A program made the position numbers and the translations under genes. Positions 25,205-52,147 of a DNA stretch of 64,000 bases are shown one piece after another. Within the stretch, counting starts at the first letter, position 1; every line of letters begins with the position of its first letter. The notes beneath the pieces were generated by a model. That model was not told the DNA's origin. It made no database searches and saw nothing but the letters and a program-made list of their open reading frames with translations. Origin of the DNA: a phage; assembly GCA_036253495.1 (NCBI GenBank), contig GCA_036253495.1_4125.1; one strand, given 5' to 3'.

Positions 25205-27376
25205 ATGGCTGTAAACAACAGTGATTACTTACTACAACAGATAGTGAATAAATCTAATGATACCGTAGATGGTCTTTCAGCTATACGTGAATTGTTAGCA
25301 GAAAGTTTAAAGAATGATAAAAAGAAAAATAATGGTGGTGGTAACCCATCACCTGGCGATTCATCTGGACCAAGTGGTGGTGGACGCGGTTCTCGTGGTA
25401 ATTCATCCTCTATGGGTAAAATGTTCAGAGCAATGTCCAGCGAAATGACAAACGTTGGTAAAACAATGATGAGTACTTCAGCGAATGTCAGTACTGTCAT
25501 TAACTCAATGGGTATGAGTGCATCATCCGTAGCTGGCTCTCTTTCTATGATCCCTGGTCCTGTAGGAATGGCAGCATCAGCATTTAAAATGGTTGCTGAT
25601 GTAGGGATGGCAGTATATAACGTAATGAACGCCCAGCTTGAAATGTACAACAGAGTCAACAGTGCGGGTGTTTCTCTTGCTGAAGGTTATGGCTCTTTGC
25701 TAAAAGGTTCAGGTTCAGCGTTAATGTCTATGGATCTATTCAGTGAAGTAATATCAACTCATAGTGATGTTATTGCACAATTGGATGGTTCGTATGGAGA
25801 TGGCGTTAAGGAATTTGGTAAATTGTTAGGTGTAGTTCAAAATGCCCAAGATAAACTTGGCCTATTTGGTATGTCACAAAAAACTTTATCAGATTTAGCA
25901 GCACGTAACATCAAAATTCAAAAACAATTTGGTGGTGCAGAACTAGTAAGGAATATAAACCAAGCACAAAGTACCCAAGAGTTAATTAAAACTATGTCTA
26001 CTTTTAGTAAGACAATGGGTATGTCAATTGATGAATTACTTAAAAAGACACAATCACTTGATAAATCATTTGATGCAAGAATACTAAAAACTACACTAAA
26101 CAACTGGGTGGGACTATCAGAAGAAACCGCAACATTAACCACTAAAGCACTTACCGAAGCGGCAGGTGGTATGGGGGATATGGGTACTGATTTCCTAAGA
26201 TTGATTAGCCACAGAATATCAATTGGTGGTGTTCCTGATGATTTATTATCTCCAATGATTAGCGAATTCGCTGACCTTGGTGAGAACATGGTTAAGTCTG
26301 GTGTAACCGATGCAAAAGCTATACGTGAAGCACAATATCAGTGGGTGAAGAAAAACAGAAAACGCGTTGAAAAAGATATGGAAGATATGCAACGAAGTCA
26401 AAACTTCACCGCTGCCGCATTTGCTAAGCAAATGTTAGATATGGAAGCTGCAATTAATGCTGACAAAAATCGACCAGCAGATAAAATCGCAGAATTTACT
26501 GATAGATTGAACAGATGGGTCAGTACTGAATTTGTTGCTCCATTCAATAAAATGTATGCTGATGTTCAAAATAATGTTGTTGATTATTTGACAGCAATTG
26601 CAGATCGTACCGATAGTGCATGGGGATTTATTTGGGAATTGGCTAAAGATGGATTTGGGTTAGTTCCAATATTCAAGGATGCAGTTGCTTATGTTGATCG
26701 TGTCGGTAATGAATTTGTATTGTGGCTTGAAGGATTAGGTGCAGATATATTTGGTGATACATACACTCAAGTTTCAAAAGCATTCGATGACTTCATGAAG
26801 AATCTCATGGATTTACCTGGAAAGTTATGGGATAAAGTAAAAGGATGGTTTGGTTCAGATGATAAATCTGAAAAACAAGAAGAACCTAAAAAGAAAATAG
26901 AAGAGAAAGCTACATCTTTCTGGGATTCTATTGGTAATTCAGTAGACGATTTCACAAAATTTGTAGAAGAAAAAACACTTGACTTCCAAAAATGGAAATC
27001 TTCTAAATTATATACACCACCTAGACCATTTAACGTAGATAATGCATATCGAGTCTTGGGCTATGAACCACCTAAAAACGTCCAGACTACAGTAATGCCA
27101 AATACACCACCTATGATGGAATTAACTCGTAAACATTATGATAAATCCGCATGGAAACCTGGTGAAGCACCATTCCCACCAGAACCAGATCGTGATATAA
27201 AATCTCTGGTAACGCCACAAAACGGAACTATAAATAATGACATGAGTTCAGAAGAGATCAAAGAAATTTTTAAACGTCTAGCAGAAATGAGTGAACAATC
27301 ACTCGCAGCAACAAATCAGACAAATAATTACTTAAGAACAATTTCTGAAAATACACAAGGTGAACGCAATAGTTAA
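25205..27376 (+). CDS. Large Gly/Met/Ser-rich virion protein (tape-measure-like or internal protein, putative)
   Basis: 723 aa with Gly-rich N-terminus, Met/Ala-rich hydrophobic helices (MGMSASSVAGSLSMIPGPVGMAASAFKMV), long helical middle, immediately upstream of portal. Function inferred from composition only. Confidence 0.3.
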   Translation: MAVNNSDYLLQQIVNKSNDTVDGLSAIRELLAESLKNDKKKNNGGGNPSPGDSSGPSGGGRGSRGNSSSMGKMFRAMSSEMTNVGKTMMSTSANVSTVINSMGMSASSVAGSLSMIPGPVGMAASAFKMVADVGMAVYNVMNAQLEMYNRVNSAGVSLAEGYGSLLKGSGSALMSMDLFSEVISTHSDVIAQLDGSYGDGVKEFGKLLGVVQNAQDKLGLFGMSQKTLSDLAARNIKIQKQFGGAELVRNINQAQSTQELIKTMSTFSKTMGMSIDELLKKTQSLDKSFDARILKTTLNNWVGLSEETATLTTKALTEAAGGMGDMGTDFLRLISHRISIGGVPDDLLSPMISEFADLGENMVKSGVTDAKAIREAQYQWVKKNRKRVEKDMEDMQRSQNFTAAAFAKQMLDMEAAINADKNRPADKIAEFTDRLNRWVSTEFVAPFNKMYADVQNNVVDYLTAIADRTDSAWGFIWELAKDGFGLVPIFKDAVAYVDRVGNEFVLWLEGLGADIFGDTYTQVSKAFDDFMKNLMDLPGKLWDKVKGWFGSDDKSEKQEEPKKKIEEKATSFWDSIGNSVDDFTKFVEEKTLDFQKWKSSKLYTPPRPFNVDNAYRVLGYEPPKNVQTTVMPNTPPMMELTRKHYDKSAWKPGEAPFPPEPDRDIKSLVTPQNGTINNDMSSEEIKEIFKRLAEMSEQSLAATNQTNNYLRTISENTQGERNS

Positions 27377-32297: not shown

Positions 32298-33473
32298 ATG
32301 TCACAACTACTAAATGAATCCAAATGGGTAGCAGTTAAAGAGAAACTAGTTGAAGGTCTTCAAGGTACTCGTAAATCCGTAATGGAAACCGTTCTTGATA
32401 ACCATCGTAAAGTTATGCTACAAGAATCTGCAACCGCTGGTGCAACTTCTGCTGGTAACATCGCTACTCTAAACAAAGTGATTCTACCAATTATGCGTCG
32501 TGTAATGCCAACCGTTATCGCTAACGAAATCATCGGTGTTCAACCAATGACTGGCCCAGTTGGTCAAATCCACACTCTACGTGTTCAATACGCTGACAAC
32601 GCACCAGGTGTTGTAGCTGGCGAAGAAATGCTATCTCCATTCAAGATTGCTAAATCTTACACTGGTGAGCTAAACTCTGACAACAGCAACCCACAAGCTG
32701 CTCCTACTAGCCAACTAGAAGGTACTATGGGTCGTCGCGTTAACATCCGTATCCTACGTGAAACTGTTGAAGCGAAATCTCGTCGTCTATCTGCACGCTG
32801 GACTGTTGAATCTGCACAAGATGCACAATCTCAACATGGTATCGACGTTGAAGCTGAACTAATGGCTGCTATTGCACAAGAAGTTACCGTTGAAATCGAC
32901 CAAGAACTACTAAGCCGTCTACGTGCACTACCTGGTGCTGCTGCTGTAACTTATGACCAATCTAAAGTTACTGGCGTTGCAACCTTCGTAGGTGATGAGC
33001 ACGCTGCTCTAGCTACCCTAATCAACCGTCAAGCGAACGAAGTTGCTCGTCGTACCAAACGTGGTGCTGCGAACTGGGCTGTTGTTTCCCCAACCGCTCT
33101 AACTATTCTACAATCTGCAACTACTTCTAGCTTTGCACGTACTACTGAAGGTACTTTTGAAGCACCAACTAACGTTAAATTCGTTGGTACTCTAAACAGC
33201 ACCATGCGTATCTTCGTTGATACCTATGCTTCAGATGTTGAAGATATCCTAATCGGTTACAAAGGTAATGCAGAAACTGACGCTGGTGTTTTCTACTGCC
33301 CATACATCCCATTGATGGCATCTGGTACTGTTATGGACCCTAACACTGGAGAACTCGTTACAACCTTCTTGACACGCTATGGCTACGTCCAGCTAACAGA
33401 TTCTACTAGTTCACTAGGTAATGCAGCAGATTATTATTCTAAAATTGCTATCAAAAACGTTACTTTCATGTAA
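32298..33473 (+). CDS. 23: Major capsid protein (gp23-like, compact form of 391 aa)
   Basis: IANEIIGVQPMTGPVGQIHTLRVQY, VEAKSRRLSARWTVESAQDAQSQHGIDVEAEL and GYKGNAETDAGVFYCPYIPL align with T4 gp23 blocks. Lacks the T4 insertion domain. Confidence 0.9.
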   Translation: MSQLLNESKWVAVKEKLVEGLQGTRKSVMETVLDNHRKVMLQESATAGATSAGNIATLNKVILPIMRRVMPTVIANEIIGVQPMTGPVGQIHTLRVQYADNAPGVVAGEEMLSPFKIAKSYTGELNSDNSNPQAAPTSQLEGTMGRRVNIRILRETVEAKSRRLSARWTVESAQDAQSQHGIDVEAELMAAIAQEVTVEIDQELLSRLRALPGAAAVTYDQSKVTGVATFVGDEHAALATLINRQANEVARRTKRGAANWAVVSPTALTILQSATTSSFARTTEGTFEAPTNVKFVGTLNSTMRIFVDTYASDVEDILIGYKGNAETDAGVFYCPYIPLMASGTVMDPNTGELVTTFLTRYGYVQLTDSTSSLGNAADYYSKIAIKNVTFM

Positions 33474-33528
33474 TTTACAAAAAAGTAGAAAAAAGCAAAA
33501 ACACAGAATTAAATTCTTTTCAAAAAAA

Positions 33529-33560
33529 GGGACTCTTCGGAGTCCCTTTTCTTTTTTTTC
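33529..33560 (+). terminator. Strong intrinsic terminator after the capsid gene
   Basis: gggactc-UUCG-gagtccc (C(UUCG)G tetraloop) followed by TTTTCTTTTTTTT. Confidence 0.8.
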
Positions 33561-33569
33561 AAAAAAGTG

Positions 33570-33598
33570 TTGACATAGATCCTAGAAATAGATATAAT
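33570..33598 (+). promoter_or_regulatory. Consensus sigma70 promoter (TTGACA-N17-TATAAT)
   Basis: Perfect -35 TTGACA 33570-33575 and -10 TATAAT 33593-33598 with 17-nt spacer, directly upstream of the endonuclease-like gene. Confidence 0.7.
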
Positions 33599-33633
33599 AC
33601 GCGTATAGTAATTAATGTATAGGATATGAAGAA

Positions 33634-34773
33634 ATGAACAAAGAGCGGTTTGTTGAAAGTATGAATGAAAAGTATTCGTCATTGGGAATTAACGGTGACT
33701 TTGATTTCTCAAATTTAGTTTTTAAGACAAGTAAGATGACCGTAAAATGTAACCACTGTGGTAAAGAAAACACAAAAAGTGCATTACGCCATTTGGAATG
33801 TACCTGCAAATGTTATTCAAATCTTTCACAGAAAATATCAAAAGACGAATTTATTGATAGAATGAATGAAAAATTTGGTGTTGGTGTTTATAAATTTGAT
33901 AAACTTTTCTTTTTGAATGTTAGGGATGTTATTGAAGTATACTGTTCCAAACACGAAGGATACTTTAAAACAACCCCATACAATATGAGTCGTAGTGTGA
34001 ATGGGTGTAACATTTGCATTCCAAATAAAAAAATGAATCATGATGAATTTGTTTATAGATGTAACGCGTTATATCCGTATTTGGATTTTAACCGAGTTGA
34101 TGAAAATGGTGATAAAATAACAAAATTTGTAGGAACAACAAAGTATATAAAAGTATGGTGTAATAGACATAATGGAATTTGGGATGTTTATGCAAATACT
34201 TTGTTGAAAGGTAAAAATCATTGTGGTATATGTACCGGACGCAAACTTAGAACCAAAGAACAATTTGTAGAATTAGCATCTAAGATTCATGATAACAAAT
34301 ATGATTATTCAGAAGTTGAATATAAAAATAGTGAACATAAGGTGAAAATTATTTGTACAGAATGTAATGAATCATTTTCACAACAGCCAAAAGCTCACTT
34401 ATCTGGTAGAGGGTGTCCGGTATGTGGGAAGTATGGATATCAACAAAATAAGCCAGGTTATTTTTATATACAAAAATTAACTCCAAAAAATATAAATGAA
34501 GTAGCAATTTATAAAATTGGAATTACTGGAGATTTATTCAGAAGAATGTATGAACAATCTCTACATTCAGAATATTTTCATGAGTTTATCAGAACTGAAT
34601 TCTTTAGTGATGGTATAAAACCACTGGAGTTAGAAACACTTATAAAAAAAACTATTACATGTGGAATAATAACAGAAAATGAATTACAAGATGGATTTAG
34701 TGAAACGATTTCATCAAATGATGTTTATGAAGTTCACAAAATCGTAAATAAATTTATAGAGAGTGAAAAATGA
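33634..34773 (+). CDS. T5orf172/GIY-YIG-like nuclease-domain protein with four N-terminal zinc-ribbon-like repeats (putative homing endonuclease)
   Basis: C-terminus PGYFYIQKL…VAIYKIGITGDLFRRM matches the T5orf172 (GIY-YIG superfamily) signature. N-terminal ~45-aa modules each carry a C…H…GC(P)xC pattern (e.g. VKCNHCG…ECTCKC; IICTECN…GRGCPVCG). Confidence 0.55.
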   Translation: MNKERFVESMNEKYSSLGINGDFDFSNLVFKTSKMTVKCNHCGKENTKSALRHLECTCKCYSNLSQKISKDEFIDRMNEKFGVGVYKFDKLFFLNVRDVIEVYCSKHEGYFKTTPYNMSRSVNGCNICIPNKKMNHDEFVYRCNALYPYLDFNRVDENGDKITKFVGTTKYIKVWCNRHNGIWDVYANTLLKGKNHCGICTGRKLRTKEQFVELASKIHDNKYDYSEVEYKNSEHKVKIICTECNESFSQQPKAHLSGRGCPVCGKYGYQQNKPGYFYIQKLTPKNINEVAIYKIGITGDLFRRMYEQSLHSEYFHEFIRTEFFSDGIKPLELETLIKKTITCGIITENELQDGFSETISSNDVYEVHKIVNKFIESEK

Positions 34774-35267
34774 AATATAAAAATTTACAAAAAATGAAAT
34801 ATTATGCTGTTCTTCATGGCGAAGAAGGGGATGACTGGGCTTTTTATAATTATGATAAATTAGTTGAAGGATATGCTTATAATTTTGATGATGATTATTA
34901 TCAATTAAGAATTCAATATGATGAATATATAATATTTTCTGACAATTTCTGCACTAACTCAACTTCCATTGGTATTGGATCTATCAAAAATGAACTTACA
35001 AATCAAATAGTAAAGTGTAGAAATAAATCAAATGAAGTTATTGTGTATACGGAAGGTGCAAACTATTCATCTGGTATGAAACTGATCGGACGACCTAATT
35101 TCGATAGTACTGACGAACTATTTCAAATATCAACAGTATGTAATATTGATTGGGATAAAGTCAAAGAAGCATTTCGTATATTGGATGAATTGAATGAGAT
35201 AATCAATTTTAAATATTATCTAACTAAACCATCTGAATCTCTAGAATTAACTAATTTACCGAAATAA
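34770..35267 (+). CDS. Hypothetical protein
   Basis: 165-aa AT-rich ORF in the accessory island; no recognised motif. Confidence 0.5.
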   Translation: MKYKNLQKMKYYAVLHGEEGDDWAFYNYDKLVEGYAYNFDDDYYQLRIQYDEYIIFSDNFCTNSTSIGIGSIKNELTNQIVKCRNKSNEVIVYTEGANYSSGMKLIGRPNFDSTDELFQISTVCNIDWDKVKEAFRILDELNEIINFKYYLTKPSESLELTNLPK

Positions 35268-35287
35268 CAATAAGGAGGTTAACACGG

Positions 35288-35638
35288 ATGTTAACTGTAT
35301 ACATTTTTAAAAAAGAAGAGTACTTAAAGAGTCAGTACTCAAAAATTGAGATCAATGTTCCTTATGGAACGTTGGTGGGTTATGATGAGGCTACGGAGAC
35401 GTTGTATTACAATGATGATCGTCTGGATTACAGTACTGATCATTTTATAGAAGATATATTGAGTACTGATTCAGAAGACATGTTGTATGAAGAATATATT
35501 GACAAATACAAAGAACGCATGTCGAAGTTACATGCTGATGCTCCAGTACTGAACACTCCTAAAACCCCATCCGAGTTTGATCCTCAAAATCCATTTCAAC
35601 GCCTGATAGATGCGGGTGTAAACTTCAGAATTAGTTAA
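35288..35638 (+). CDS. Hypothetical protein
   Basis: 116-aa ORF with AAGGAGG RBS; no recognised motif. Confidence 0.55.
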   Translation: MLTVYIFKKEEYLKSQYSKIEINVPYGTLVGYDEATETLYYNDDRLDYSTDHFIEDILSTDSEDMLYEEYIDKYKERMSKLHADAPVLNTPKTPSEFDPQNPFQRLIDAGVNFRIS

Positions 35639-35668
35639 TAATAAATATCTCCATACTAGGAGATATCT

Positions 35669-35977
35669 ATGTCACAAATATGTTATGTAATCACTAATAG
35701 TGCATGGCCTGAATATGTAAAGATAGGCTTCACTACAAAATCAGAGATGAAAGAGCGTTTAGGTGTTTACCAGACTGCTTCACCATTCAGGGATTTTGAG
35801 GTATACCATCAGGTTATGTTTGACGATGCACGAACAGCAGAAAAGGAAGTGCATAAGAGATTAAAGCAAATGAATGCAACAAGGCAACCTAACTCTGAAT
35901 GGTTCAAGATGCCTAAAAAGTTAGCTGCAAATATTATTGATTCCGTATTGGATGATATGGAAAATGATTTACTATAG
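35669..35977 (+). CDS. T5orf172/MUG113-like (GIY-YIG superfamily) domain protein
   Basis: ICYVITNSAWPEYVKIGFTTKSEMKERL…SPFRDFEVY…ARTAEKEVHKRL…SEWFKM matches the T5orf172 domain pattern. AGGAG RBS. Confidence 0.6.
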   Translation: MSQICYVITNSAWPEYVKIGFTTKSEMKERLGVYQTASPFRDFEVYHQVMFDDARTAEKEVHKRLKQMNATRQPNSEWFKMPKKLAANIIDSVLDDMENDLL

Positions 35978-36017
35978 ATATAAATATGATATATATTAAA
36001 CAAAAAAGGATTTTTAC

Positions 36018-37628
36018 ATGAGCATAAGTTTTAATCATCCACAGAATACTGTAACCAGTACTGCGGAAAATGGTTCATTGAATCTAATAGTACTAGGTGG
36101 TACACCAACTAATCCTCGACCAATTAGAATGAATTCTTCATCGGTAATACTACCTGTTCAGGATTTGCCTGTTGGTGAAGCAGGGGCGATAGTATTTGAC
36201 AAAAACACTCTTACTTTGAAGTATCATGATGGTACTAACTGGATTGAAATGTTAAGTGCTGCCGATGTAGTTGCACCAATTGAACAACAGATTCAGGATA
36301 TCAATTCTATACTTGGAACTAAGGTTGATAGAGTAACCTATTCAATGTCATCAATTCCAACTGCTTCTATTAGCGGAACTACATTGAATATTATATTCCC
36401 AACACCTTCATCAATTCAAGGTGCTAATGGTTTGTACACGAGTGCTAAACCTGGATGTATTATGCATTATAGCTTGACATCTGGACAAACCGTTGCTAGT
36501 ATACGTGAACAAATGTCGGGTAGTACTGGTGGACAGAGTGGTCGTGACGGCTCCCAAGCTAAACCGTGGAAAACATCCGATGGTTGGTGTTTTGCTGATG
36601 GTATGTGGTGGCAGTGGCAAGGTGCTAATGGTACAATAACCAAACAAGTACCAAACTTGAACCGTGATGGATATTTAAGAAGTATCACCACTAGTGGTAT
36701 AACCAAAACTGACGCAATGATAGCAGGTGGTGGTTCATTAACACCGAGTACTTTCACTATTCCAGACCACATTCATGGGACTGGTAAAATGTTAGGTACT
36801 AACGGTAGTGATGCGGATGATGCTGTTTTCATTAGTGGTAGAGCATGGAATGATGGCAGAGGCTATCGTGGTCCTGCAATCTTTGGTGATAAGAATGCCC
36901 GTATGGAGTTTAGTGTAGATGGTAACAATGCAGCAACTGCATTATCAACTTCACAACCAATTTATGATGATGCGAATGCACGCACAATAACCCATAACCA
37001 TACAGTAACAGGTATTGACGTACCACACTTTAACACTGCAATTTTGTATAACATTTCCGAACCATCAGTTGCGATGAGCGAAAATACTGCAAATGGTCGT
37101 TTTGTTCGTAAAACTGGTGATACAATGTCTGGTGAATTATACATTGCTAACCGTGCTGGTATTCGTGGTGGTGGTGATTTGTACTTATTCTTCCAGAACG
37201 CTAGTGGTGGTGAACGTGCCGCAGTATACTTCCAAGGTAATGAACTAAGACTTCGTGCTGGTGGTGGTGCTGTAACAGTTAACAGTGGTGGTTCTTTGTA
37301 TATACCAGGTTCATTAACAGTTAACGCAGCATCAGCAACTGTCGGAACGAAACATATAGTACGTTCTGTTAACGGCTCAACTGCTGGTTCTGATGGTAAT
37401 GTAAATATATCTGTCGGATCAGTACAAGATGTACGTTTTTTCAATCAAGATTATTATTGGCCGGGTGGTAATGAGTTATCATGGCACTTTGTGTGTCCAT
37501 CAGGTGCAGTACTAAGTGGTATAAATGTACAAGATGTTGGTAAAAACTCTGCTGATAACATTGGTGGTGTGAATTATAAATTTATACAAATTTTGGTTGA
37601 TGGTAGCTGGAGAAATATAAACGGATAA
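36018..37628 (+). CDS. Tail fibre protein
   Basis: 536 aa, Gly/Ser/Thr/Asn-rich, with the tail-fibre motif VRKTGDTMSGELY and repeated beta-rich segments. Followed by a Tfa chaperone gene. Confidence 0.7.
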   Translation: MSISFNHPQNTVTSTAENGSLNLIVLGGTPTNPRPIRMNSSSVILPVQDLPVGEAGAIVFDKNTLTLKYHDGTNWIEMLSAADVVAPIEQQIQDINSILGTKVDRVTYSMSSIPTASISGTTLNIIFPTPSSIQGANGLYTSAKPGCIMHYSLTSGQTVASIREQMSGSTGGQSGRDGSQAKPWKTSDGWCFADGMWWQWQGANGTITKQVPNLNRDGYLRSITTSGITKTDAMIAGGGSLTPSTFTIPDHIHGTGKMLGTNGSDADDAVFISGRAWNDGRGYRGPAIFGDKNARMEFSVDGNNAATALSTSQPIYDDANARTITHNHTVTGIDVPHFNTAILYNISEPSVAMSENTANGRFVRKTGDTMSGELYIANRAGIRGGGDLYLFFQNASGGERAAVYFQGNELRLRAGGGAVTVNSGGSLYIPGSLTVNAASATVGTKHIVRSVNGSTAGSDGNVNISVGSVQDVRFFNQDYYWPGGNELSWHFVCPSGAVLSGINVQDVGKNSADNIGGVNYKFIQILVDGSWRNING

Positions 37629-37631
37629 TTT

Positions 37632-38087
37632 ATGATAACTTTAAAAAATTTTAAATCATATGAAGGTAATGACCCTAAATTAAAAAAATTAAATGTTGCT
37701 TTTTTAATTTCAGAATGTGGAATGGATTGGTATGATTCTCAAAAATTATTTTCCGAAAATACAATGAAAATTGTGGTTGATAAAAATAATATAGTTTGCA
37801 ATGCAACACGTGATATTACTATGATGTATCCAGTGGATGCTAGTGTATATGAAATTGAATATGATGGTGATGGACATGAACTAAGAGGAAAAATATATCA
37901 TGAAGAAGATGGCACTTTTTCTGAAAGACCACCTCGTAAACCTACCCCACAACAAATATTCAATGATTTGAGTGAACGTAAAAAAGTACTGGACATGAAG
38001 AAAGAATTCGATATGTTGAGCACTGAAGAAGCTGCTGAGTACGAGAAGCTAATCTCTGATCTTAAAGAAGTTTTAAACCTTCTTTAA
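37632..38087 (+). CDS. tfa: Tail fibre assembly chaperone (lambda/E. coli Tfa-type)
   Basis: MITLKNFKSYEGN…DWYDSQ…TMKIVVDKNNIVCNATRDITMMYPVDASVYEI parallels enterobacterial Tfa (…LKNIKAGN…NWYEE…[32 protein letters not shown]) from memory. Confidence 0.65.
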   Translation: MITLKNFKSYEGNDPKLKKLNVAFLISECGMDWYDSQKLFSENTMKIVVDKNNIVCNATRDITMMYPVDASVYEIEYDGDGHELRGKIYHEEDGTFSERPPRKPTPQQIFNDLSERKKVLDMKKEFDMLSTEEAAEYEKLISDLKEVLNLL

Positions 38088-38093
38088 AAATTT

Positions 38094-38121
38094 GGGACAC
38101 ATTGAGAAGTACTGATATAAT
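38094..38121 (+). promoter_or_regulatory. sigma70-like promoter GGGACA-N16-TGaTATAAT
   Basis: Same motif family as 17979, 22682, 42060, 50886, 50962 and 61008. Confidence 0.5.
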
Positions 38122-38123
38122 AG

Positions 38124-38163
38124 AGACATTCCACGAGGAACATTGTGGAGTGTCTATTTTTTC
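38124..38163 (+). terminator. Terminator-like hairpin (11-bp stem plus U-run) immediately downstream of the promoter; possible attenuator
   Basis: agacattccac-gaggaacatt-gtggagtgtct followed by ATTTTTTC, located in the leader of the dsbA-like gene. Confidence 0.55.
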
Positions 38164-38185
38164 ATTAACACATGGAGATACAACA

Positions 38186-38488
38186 ATGGCTAAGTCTAAA
38201 AAAGAAGCAAAAGTAGAAATTCGTGACCTAAACGACGAACAACGTAAACGTCTAAGTGATGGTCTAAACAATGCAGTGGTACAGCTAACCTTTATTGATG
38301 ATACCAAAGCTTCCTATACTGATTTCATCAACTCTCTTTCTGATGAGCTAGGTATTGATGCATCCGATATCAAACAAGCTGCACAACGCATTTACAAAGG
38401 CGATTACTTTGATAAGCAAAACAAACTAGACAACATCGAAACTATCCTAAGCGTAACTAATAATCTACCACAAGCTGATGATTATTAA
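38186..38488 (+). CDS. dsDNA-binding protein DsbA-like (putative)
   Basis: ATG 38186 after GGAGA. …DFINSLSDELGIDASDIKQAAQRIYKGDYFDKQ… resembles T4 DsbA …DIRIRAKDELGVDGKMFNRLLALYHKDNRDVF…. Confidence 0.4.
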   Translation: MAKSKKEAKVEIRDLNDEQRKRLSDGLNNAVVQLTFIDDTKASYTDFINSLSDELGIDASDIKQAAQRIYKGDYFDKQNKLDNIETILSVTNNLPQADDY

Positions 38489-43141: not shown

Positions 43142-43441
43142 ATGAAACTAAAAATGATTAACGATTATGTTCTTGTTCGTCAGATTGAAGCACAAAACAA
43201 AAGTACTGGTGGTATTATCCTCGGTAATGTAGAGCCTCCATGTGTTGGTATGGTTATTTCTGTTGGTGAAGGTAAAGTACTACCAAATGGTCAAATCGCT
43301 GAACATAACATTCGTGAGGGTGATATGGTTGTTTTTGGTCGTTCTTCTCTGAACACCCCCCTGACTGAAGATCTTGGTGGTGGTGAAGATACATACTATG
43401 TAATGAAAATTGAAGAAATCTTTGGAAAGAAAAATGGCTAA
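43142..43441 (+). CDS. GroES-like co-chaperonin (functional analogue of T4 gp31)
   Basis: ATG 43142 after GGAGG. NDYVLVRQIEAQNKSTGGIIL…VGMVISVGEGKVLPNGQ…REGDMVVFGR…YYVMKIEEI follows the GroES/Hsp10 pattern. Confidence 0.7.
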   Translation: MKLKMINDYVLVRQIEAQNKSTGGIILGNVEPPCVGMVISVGEGKVLPNGQIAEHNIREGDMVVFGRSSLNTPLTEDLGGGEDTYYVMKIEEIFGKKNG

Positions 43442-44159
43442 GAAAAGGTTATTACCTTTCTGGATGGTCCCCGCTCATTGGGGACTTTCTGGTAAAGCGA
43501 AAGAGATTGCTAAAGCATACTATTACAATGACGATTATGAAGCAGATTTGAAAGTTGCAGAACTAACATATCTTACTGAATATGAAGTTGATGTTGCACA
43601 ATTGGACATTAAAAAGAAATATGGTGTTATTGATACACTAAAATATCTAATTGAACAGGCGGCTGTCGAATTAAAGTACTCTAAGATTACACGTGAAGAG
43701 TACGATTTAAAAGTACTTGACGCAAAGTTAAGTACTGATACTATTACTCAAAAAGAGTATGATATGGAAGTAATCGAGCTAATGCCTGAAGGTGATGATA
43801 AACGATTGAAAGCCATTGAGTATGCGTATAAGTATGATGAAATTACACAACAAGAGTATTCAAAGGAAATCTATACATTACGTAAAGAGCCTTGGATTGA
43901 TTTGGATGTAATTTTGAATCCTGATACAAACGAAGTAGAATTTGTATTTGATTACAATGAATACTTTTGGAAGAAATTAAAAGCCGAAGGTCACCCAGGA
44001 ACGGATGAAGAAGAGATTATTGATAACTTTGTTCGTGATTTGGGTCGCAAATTAGCTACTGACGATTATAGTGATAACGAAGATGCAAAGCTAGTGAGTG
44101 CGAACGCAGGGTTAGAGAATCTACCTGGTTTACCTGAAGGTTTCAAATCATACAAATAA
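43434..44159 (+). CDS. Hypothetical protein with internal tandem repeats
   Basis: Four ~20-aa repeats of the type (K/T/E)IT(R/Q)(E/K/Q)EYDxxV. Start overlaps the GroES stop. Confidence 0.55.
   Translation: MAKKRLLPFWMVPAHWGLSGKAKEIAKAYYYNDDYEADLKVAELTYLTEYEVDVAQLDIKKKYGVIDTLKYLIEQAAVELKYSKITREEYDLKVLDAKLSTDTITQKEYDMEVIELMPEGDDKRLKAIEYAYKYDEITQQEYSKEIYTLRKEPWIDLDVILNPDTNEVEFVFDYNEYFWKKLKAEGHPGTDEEEIIDNFVRDLGRKLATDDYSDNEDAKLVSANAGLENLPGLPEGFKSYK

Positions 44160-47245: not shown

Positions 47246-52147
<4,902 letters not shown>

Follow-up and report, generated by a model that had tools for sequence, protein, structure and literature searches.

A putative T5orf172-class homing-endonuclease cassette with its own sigma-70-type promoter behind the capsid gene of an Asteriusvirus-type jumbo coliphage

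We analyzed a 64,000-nucleotide (nt) stretch of phage DNA (hereafter the window; contig GCA_036253495.1_4125.1 of NCBI GenBank assembly GCA_036253495.1), whose source is an Asteriusvirus-type jumbo coliphage. The analysis concerns the genes directly 3' of its gp23-type capsid gene, where a putative homing-endonuclease cassette occupies a variable slot (Table 1). The nearest deposited relative of the window is Escherichia phage A4, with 99.1-99.5% identity across 45 kb. A first-pass annotation had placed four open reading frames (ORF1 to ORF4) 3' of the capsid gene, and all four are confirmed in position and on the same strand. They are followed by a tail-fibre gene and by the genes for a tail-fibre assembly protein and a DNA polymerase. 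The description of all four as AT-rich holds for ORF1 and ORF2, whose guanine-cytosine (GC) contents are 0.29 and 0.27, but not for ORF3 and ORF4 (0.356 and 0.362), which are at the window mean of 0.357. Further copies of ORF1 to ORF4 were sought within the window and none was found.

Table 1. Features at the capsid-downstream locus, in positions of the window (aa, amino acids)
Feature	Position	Strand	Description
gp23-type capsid gene	32298-33473	+	Pfam Gp23, 5.4e-90
Capsid gene 3' tract	33215-33446	+	Gene nt 918-1149; recoded, no amino-acid change; proposed co-conversion tract
Tract core	33350-33446	+	Gene nt 1053-1149; proposed target zone of slot nucleases
Capsid-gene intrinsic terminator	33525-33550	+	Hairpin and T-run; left edge of variable slot
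Sigma-70 consensus promoter	33570-33598	+	TTGACA-N17-TATAAT; 12/12 match
ORF1	33634-34773	+	379 aa
ORF1 N-terminal region	33634-34437	+	Four tandem treble-clef zinc modules; predicted DNA-recognition array
ORF1 C-terminal domain	34438-34773	+	aa 269-379; GIY-YIG/T5orf172-like fold; predicted nuclease
ORF2	34770-35267	+	165 aa; ATGA overlap with ORF1; companion gene, translationally coupled; unique, shortened allele of a rare slot-specific family
ORF3	35288-35638	+	116 aa; acidic conserved backbone protein, phrog_15724; right edge of mobile unit
ORF4	35669-35977	+	102 aa; stand-alone T5orf172/MUG113 domain; backbone gene

The locus was compared in 18 genomes or contigs of this jumbo phage group, including four Logan contigs (L005-L008), and the slot was taken to run from the capsid terminator to the start codon of ORF3. 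The slot is empty (73-118 nt) in PBECO4, fEgEco12, SD-6_S16 and CMSTMSU, while the other 14 of the 18 are occupied and carry at least five different nuclease alleles. A nuclease of 365-368 aa, the A4/121Q type, is present in A4, BF17 and 121Q, and a 364-aa allele that is 61-64% identical to this type is present in EJP2. E9.1 and EC.P1 have a three-module nuclease of 306-309 aa, and Turkey5 has a 408-aa nuclease with a CapR domain. The slots of the window, L005-L008 and Salmonella phage 7t3 contain a nuclease together with a second, companion gene. The CapR profile PF21817 matches the slot proteins of both Turkey5 and 7t3 at ~1e-10. In UE-S1, the slot holds a 552-aa DUF7487 protein with a weak restriction-endonuclease-like match (L015, 1862-3520; DUF7487 at 1.8e-12, REase_MTES_1575 at 23 bits, below its cut-off), which has its own 11/12 promoter. 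Because this protein is unrelated to the other slot nucleases, the slot accepts different nuclease families.

The insert is present or absent with precise junctions at the capsid terminator and at the ATG of ORF3, as in a free-standing homing endonuclease gene (HEG). ORF3 and ORF4, in contrast, are found in all 18 genomes, so the variable unit comprises the promoter, ORF1 and ORF2 only, and ORF3 and ORF4 are resident. A comparison of the capsid-downstream junction among relatives had been suggested as a check on the proposal of a four-gene homing-endonuclease island. The empty slots, and the presence, absence or replacement of the promoter with ORF1, bear out the insertion itself, whereas the fixed presence of ORF3 and ORF4 does away with the four-gene extent.

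The left edge of the slot is the intrinsic terminator of the capsid gene, which is common to all relatives. Its core, GGGACTCTTCGGAGTCCC, is unchanged in five aligned genomes, and seven more genomes have variant hairpins of the same shape. As the first-pass annotation had read from the letters, this terminator is followed by a perfect sigma-70 consensus promoter, which is the only exact TTGACA-N17-TATAAT match in the 64 kb (~0.05 expected by chance, as estimated from base composition). A promoter matching the sigma-70 consensus at 11-12 of 12 positions lies between the terminator and the start of the slot gene in 13 of the 14 occupied slots, and the remaining one, EC.P1, has an extended -10 (TGGTATAAT) instead. 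None of the four empty slots has a promoter match above 8/12. Since the promoter is found in occupied slots only, it belongs to the cassette and is a constant part of it, and we infer from its sequence that the cassette would be expressed early by the host RNA polymerase. We also observed that in Turkey5 (L009), EJP2 (L010) and 7t3 (L011) the -35 hexamer of the cassette, TTGACG, is located within the loop and stem of the terminator hairpin (GGGACTCTTGACGAGTCCC) and TATAAT is located 3' of the T-run, so that terminator and promoter overlap just past the capsid stop codon.

ORF1 has two parts. Its N-terminal region, modeled by AlphaFold2 (AF2) with a predicted local distance difference test score (pLDDT) of 82, is resolved by self-alignment into modules at residues 1-66, 67-132, 133-203 and 204-268, each of which contains a helix and then a treble-clef-like C-x2-C/H ... 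C-x2-C knuckle. The earlier reading of four zinc modules in tandem is therefore retained, but the modules are 65-71 aa and not ~45 aa long, and module 1 has a CxxC...CxCxC pattern and not C..H..GCxxC. The Cys/His ligands of the zinc modules are invariant in 27 ORF1 homologues. DUF4379 reaches 24.4 bits on ORF1 against a cut-off of 24.5, and precomputed matches to DUF723 and DUF4379 are present on nearly all ORF1 homologues. In addition, phrog_681, annotated 'endonuclease', matches ORF1 at 2.5e-58. The fusion of a zinc-finger array to a T5orf172-like domain is the arrangement known from T5orf172 HEGs with zinc arrays.

The C-terminal domain of ORF1 had been assigned to the T5orf172 type. The T5orf172 profile (PF10544) gives 17.2 bits on the whole protein and 19.2 bits on the domain alone, both short of the Pfam cut-off of 20, and the match spans profile positions 1-44 only. 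Within the ORF1 family, T5orf172 matches 12 of 13 members (best E value 1.1e-4) and MUG113 matches 11 of 13 (best 5e-6), in every case below threshold. The canonical GIY-YIG profile of the I-TevI/Seg type, PF01541, gave no match to ORF1 or ORF4 at E values up to 1, and a PDB sequence search with a profile of the ORF1 C-terminal domain found nothing. The predicted structure of the C-terminal 114 residues (pLDDT 92, predicted template modeling score 0.85) shows the GIY-YIG arrangement, a three-stranded sheet with flanking helices in the order beta-beta-alpha-beta-alpha. Thus, the earlier assignment does not stand on its hidden Markov model (HMM) score, and it is the predicted fold that supports placing ORF1 among GIY-YIG proteins. 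Candidate motif residues invariant in the 27 homologues are Y278 (in GYFYI), Y293-K294-x-G296 (YKIG), R303/R304, E334 and E357. The ratio of nonsynonymous to synonymous substitution rates (dN/dS) of ORF1 is 0.10-0.24, indicating that ORF1 is under purifying selection and maintained.

The history of the slot gene differs from that of its flanks. On either side of the slot, the window and A4 have 99% identity, while their slot nucleases are 47% identical. The nucleases of A4 and BF17, on the other hand, are 97% identical, while the capsid genes of these two phages have 52 differences within nt 1-900 and their ORF3 and ORF4 are ~90% and ~82% identical. Between the window and A4, the capsid genes show 50 nucleotide differences and no amino-acid difference, and 42 of the 50 fall within the 3' tract. 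The proportion of differing synonymous sites (pS) for this pair is 0.035 over gene nt 1-900, 0.56 over nt 901-1173 and 0.85 over nt 1051-1152. The last of these values is at least as high as that found for the most distantly related members of the group, and the same segment contains three serine family switches between TCN and AGY.

Similar steps are seen in other same-backbone pairs. The capsid gene of fEgEco12, whose slot is empty, has no difference from that of the nuclease-bearing BF17 over nt 1-1052 and then 19 in nt 1053-1143. PBECO4 (empty) and E9.1 (nuclease) have no difference over nt 1-926 and then 22, and L007 and Turkey5, which carry different nucleases, have one over nt 1-900 and then 21. 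Conversely, A4 and 121Q have no capsid differences past nt 1053 though they differ by 7-8% upstream, and the window and L005 have none in nt 901-1176. The capsid 3' haplotype therefore goes with the slot allele and not with the backbone, and there are no amino-acid changes in the 3' tracts of the compared pairs. Among 14 Escherichia-type genomes, capsid diversity per 60 nt is 0.01-0.09 over nt 1-900 and 0.145, 0.06, 0.14 and 0.22 in the four bins of nt 901-1140. The tracts start at nt 918, 927, 1023, 1053 and 1098, and this scatter matches the expectation for variable resection. Same-backbone pairs usually have only 0-7 differences in the 1100 nt downstream of the slot, which places the tracts mostly on the left side of the cassette. 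A gene history incongruent with the flanks, together with co-converted flanking tracts, is characteristic of HEGs, and the silent recoding of the capsid gene is the trace that homing-type gene conversion would be expected to leave.

Taken together, the window from ~33560 to 35267 is likely to be a free-standing HEG cassette of the T5orf172 class (GIY-YIG superfamily). Host RNA polymerase would transcribe the cassette early from its own sigma-70 promoter, with ORF2 co-transcribed from the same start, and during mixed infection ORF1 would bind a long site via its zinc modules and make its cut within the capsid gene of the rival genome, at the 3' end (~33350-33446). The break would then be repaired with the cassette carrier as template, so that the cassette and the adjoining capsid segment are copied into the rival, while the silent capsid differences would shield the carrier from its own enzyme. 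We infer this target zone and the self-immunity by silent recoding from the placement of the capsid differences.

Several points weigh against this interpretation. The T5orf172 score of ORF1 is below the Pfam cut-off, and a profile comparison of its C-terminal domain with the ORF4 orthologues showed no relation, although this is a weak negative because the alignments are shallow (effective number of sequences, Neff, ~2). E9.1 has a nuclease and yet carries 'empty-type' sequence at capsid nt 1101-1176, so that no single target site fits every allele; different alleles probably recognize different sub-sites. The capsid 3' tracts could also have arisen without any nuclease, by ordinary recombination where two modules meet, and the early timing of the promoter is an assumption that comes from the promoter sequence alone. 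Finally, homing of the T5orf172 genes of ICP1 was without experimental verification as of the survey by Barth, Dunham & Seed (2023, PMC10448857), and our literature search found no later experimental homing test of these genes.

The exact ORF2 protein was found in the window only. Protein searches of 5.8 billion cluster representatives and of 1.84 billion representatives returned ORF2 itself only, tblastn found no match in 50,697 phage records, there is no Pfam, PHROG or PADLOC match, and IMG/VR scans were negative. The chance of an open frame of 165 codons in sequence with 27% GC is estimated at ~5e-7. The C-terminal 77 aa of ORF2 do, however, have 35% identity (pairwise E value 3e-12) to genes of 207 aa that L005-L008 and 7t3 carry at this position. 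This companion family has nine clusters only in a large protein collection, and all members with readable context sit between a slot nuclease and ORF3. Its dN/dS of 0.10-0.27 indicates that the family is under purifying selection. In a profile comparison, the companion family showed no relation to the ORF3 family, which again is a weak negative from shallow alignments (Neff ~2).

Companion relationships go with ORF3 and the backbone, not with the nuclease allele. In L008, a nuclease of the window type stands beside a companion like that of 7t3, and L005 and L006 have identical companions and nucleases that are 80% identical. The window is the exception: it shares with L005 a 91% identical nuclease and a 100% identical ORF3, but DNA similarity is absent over exactly 34762-35265. 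With zero DNA similarity across exactly the ORF, we rejected the idea that ORF2 is a decayed 207-aa companion. No slot has a companion without an upstream nuclease and promoter. ORF2 is thus best described as a separately exchangeable, fast-evolving gene that depends on the cassette promoter. The suggestion that the middle genes travel with the insertion fails for ORF3, and for ORF2 it is true in that the gene is confined to the slot, but it does not simply move with ORF1. Elsewhere in the companion family, the gene in L019 (4368-4992) is frameshifted into 47-aa and 163-aa pieces, and protein P0127 is truncated at 98 aa, so that genes of this family seem to decay occasionally.

ORF3 and ORF4 lie outside the insertion, because they are present in all relatives examined. 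ORF3 was found in 71 phage-collection records and in every host genus that matches the capsid region, and between the window and A4 an identity of 99.3% at the nucleotide level resumes exactly at its ATG. ORF4 is 76-100% identical in amino-acid sequence among the 18 genomes, and its orthologues adjoin ORF3 in Erwinia and Yersinia jumbo phages as well. The first-pass reading of ORF4 as a stand-alone T5orf172 domain is well founded: PF10544 scores 49.0 bits (9e-13; cut-off 20) over profile positions 2-99 of 101, and MUG113 scores 48.4 bits (1.5e-12; cut-off 22.3). ORF4 probably represents a minimal nuclease domain that is fixed and not mobile.

Further observations were made on this resident block. 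ORF4 matches the N-terminal part of the PADLOC candidate defence protein PDC-S57 (3.6e-16), and homologues that are 30-45% identical occur in tRNA regions of T5-like phages. Compared with 121Q (L002), the synonymous sites of ORF4 are saturated (0.79 differing) while the protein is 85% identical. The block of ORF3, ORF4 and tail fibre (35266-37600) as a whole has ~73% DNA identity to 121Q, and the capsid region has ~86-92%, indicating that the slot coincides with a boundary between differently diverged modules. Just past the ORF4 stop codon, 32 nt upstream of the tail-fibre start (36018), the window contains TATAAATA (35979-35986), which we take to be the T4 late-promoter consensus, and a late sigma factor is annotated in A4 (A4_588).

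Four other explanations of the locus were weighed. Rival alleles might compete for the slot, each cutting the capsid haplotypes of the others and forcing silent recoding, with ORF2 as an allele-specific partner. Such an arms race would draw its support from the very high silent-site divergence at gene nt 1051-1152, and it would make ORF2 an inhibitor or specificity factor for the nuclease, for example, and not a passive passenger. We regard this reading, including the role it gives ORF2, as unlikely.

It is also quite improbable that ORF1 has been domesticated and works to the benefit of the phage as a DNA-binding protein or nuclease, either regulating capsid expression in a CapR-like way or excluding competing phages or satellites. 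[quoted passage not shown] CapR acts on a capsid locus, the sister alleles of Turkey5 and 7t3 have CapR-type zinc domains, and ORF1 itself adjoins the capsid gene under purifying selection, with a strong early promoter that would suit a regulator or a weapon. However, CapR is described as a repressor acting through its DNA-binding domain, while ORF1 keeps a complete nuclease-type domain, with motifs invariant in the 27 homologues, and is variable and replaceable. Its absence from 4 of 18 close relatives indicates that it is dispensable, and allele turnover with linked flanking tracts is a signature of homing and not of a fixed host function.

Alternatively, the slot could be a recombination hot spot at the boundary of the head and tail-fibre modules, in which the resident genes are inherited vertically and repeatedly lost and the capsid mosaicism arises by ordinary homologous recombination. 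Mosaicism is common in tail-fibre regions, and the step in identity to 121Q across the slot places a module boundary here. The divergence, however, is concentrated in the 60-260 nt right beside the slot and changes together with the nuclease allele. This is seen in fEgEco12 and EC.P1, whose capsid genes have one difference over nt 1-900 and 24 over nt 901-1176, with none in the 1100 nt downstream. Near-identical nucleases on divergent backbones (A4, BF17) and at least two unrelated nuclease families in one slot also speak against it, and we find this explanation very doubtful.

That all four genes (33634-35977) form one accessory island, with ORF4 as a second homing endonuclease and the middle genes as passengers, is hardly credible: ORF4 is a true T5orf172 domain with distant homologues annotated as putative homing endonucleases in T5-like phages, but ORF3 and ORF4 are syntenic and conserved in 18/18 genomes and several host genera, are at backbone GC and lie beyond the indel boundaries, and ORF4 has no DNA-binding module. 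An intron-encoded endonuclease was rejected, as the cassette lies between genes and an Rfam scan of the window gave no match.

Read as a homing cassette, ORF1 with its promoter belongs, by its domain composition and behavior, to the T5orf172 homing-endonuclease class already described in ICP1, T5-like and other phages (PMC10448857). In that survey, 87% of T5orf172 HEGs carry CapR, DUF723 or DUF4379 zinc modules, often repeated, a capsid gene appears in 31% of the neighbourhoods, and the genes are described as 'boundaries of genetic exchange'. ORF1 likewise has an N-terminal zinc array and a C-terminal T5orf172-like domain, stands free beside an essential gene with variable presence in close relatives, marks a boundary of genetic exchange, and has a variable number of modules (3 or 4 here). 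It differs in that Rak2/Asteriusvirus-type jumbo phages are not among the lineages named as enriched there, in scoring just under the Pfam T5orf172 cut-off, in that every occupied slot has its own sigma-70-type promoter, and in the slot-specific companion gene and the well-resolved silent capsid tract.

The comparison with T4 segD, drawn in the first-pass annotation from the position of the insert, is correct as to placement: genes 23 and 24 do flank segD (Edgell et al. 2010, PMC2988022, Table 1), a free-standing gene of the GIY-YIG superfamily just 3' of a gp23-type capsid gene, although for segD no activity has been demonstrated and no target is known. The intronless homing of T4 seg and mob genes, in which a distant site in a neighbouring conserved gene is cleaved and the flanks are co-converted (PMC2988022), is a model that fits the present data. 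The proteins are different. In T4 Seg proteins and I-TevI the nuclease is N-terminal, while in ORF1 it is C-terminal, and because the domain order is reversed and PF01541 does not match, ORF1 is not a Seg-type protein. The DNA-binding modules of ORF1 are zinc ribbons, unlike those of T4 seg, and the cassette promoter is of the early sigma-70 type whereas endonuclease-specific promoters in T4 are middle or late, never early (PMC2988022). GIY-YIG (URI) domains of the SLX1/HIGLE type have 13-16% sequence identity to ORF1, a resemblance of fold only; this group consists of structure-specific eukaryotic repair nucleases whose partner domain is RING/PHD, unlike ORF1.

Other differences were noted outside the locus. 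Near window position ~38088, between 37632-38087 and 38102-38488, A4 has ~700 bp extra (L001, 7035-7736) carrying A4_16, a 'putative tail fiber chaperone' of 165 aa without a counterpart in the window, which makes it the second indel separating these two genomes, elsewhere 99% identical. The bins 26500-26749 and 43250-43499 each have 12 differences from A4 per 250 nt against a background of 0-3, and may be further small recombination patches. The large terminase gene appears to be split in the window (47246-47950 and 48226-49563, ~275 nt apart) and is likewise in two pieces in A4, both annotated 'large terminase subunit'. An ORF of 112 aa spans the interval, Terminase_6N matches the second piece only, and an Rfam intron search at the split terminase found none (best E value 0.22, a chance-level snoRNA match). 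In ICP1, a spliced terL is located beside a T5orf172 gene (PMC10448857).

The papers on Asteriusvirus genomes that we searched contain no discussion of the capsid-downstream locus, and its constant cassette promoter, sharply resolved capsid 3' recoding and rare companion gene may be worth the attention of specialists. Natural near-identical pairs whose sole differences are the cassette and a short stretch of recoded capsid gene are at hand in fEgEco12 and BF17 or EC.P1, with further pairs in PBECO4 and E9.1 and in A4 and the window phage, and the candidate target is narrowed to ~100 bp. With these pairs and this target, direct tests of cleavage, immunity by silent recoding and biased inheritance can be made in E. 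coli phages that grow in culture. A practical consequence concerns the annotation of therapeutic jumbo phages, where the 'hypothetical proteins' downstream of the capsid gene would be the contents of a mobile nuclease slot, and the 3' sequences of capsid genes would be unreliable phylogenetic markers.

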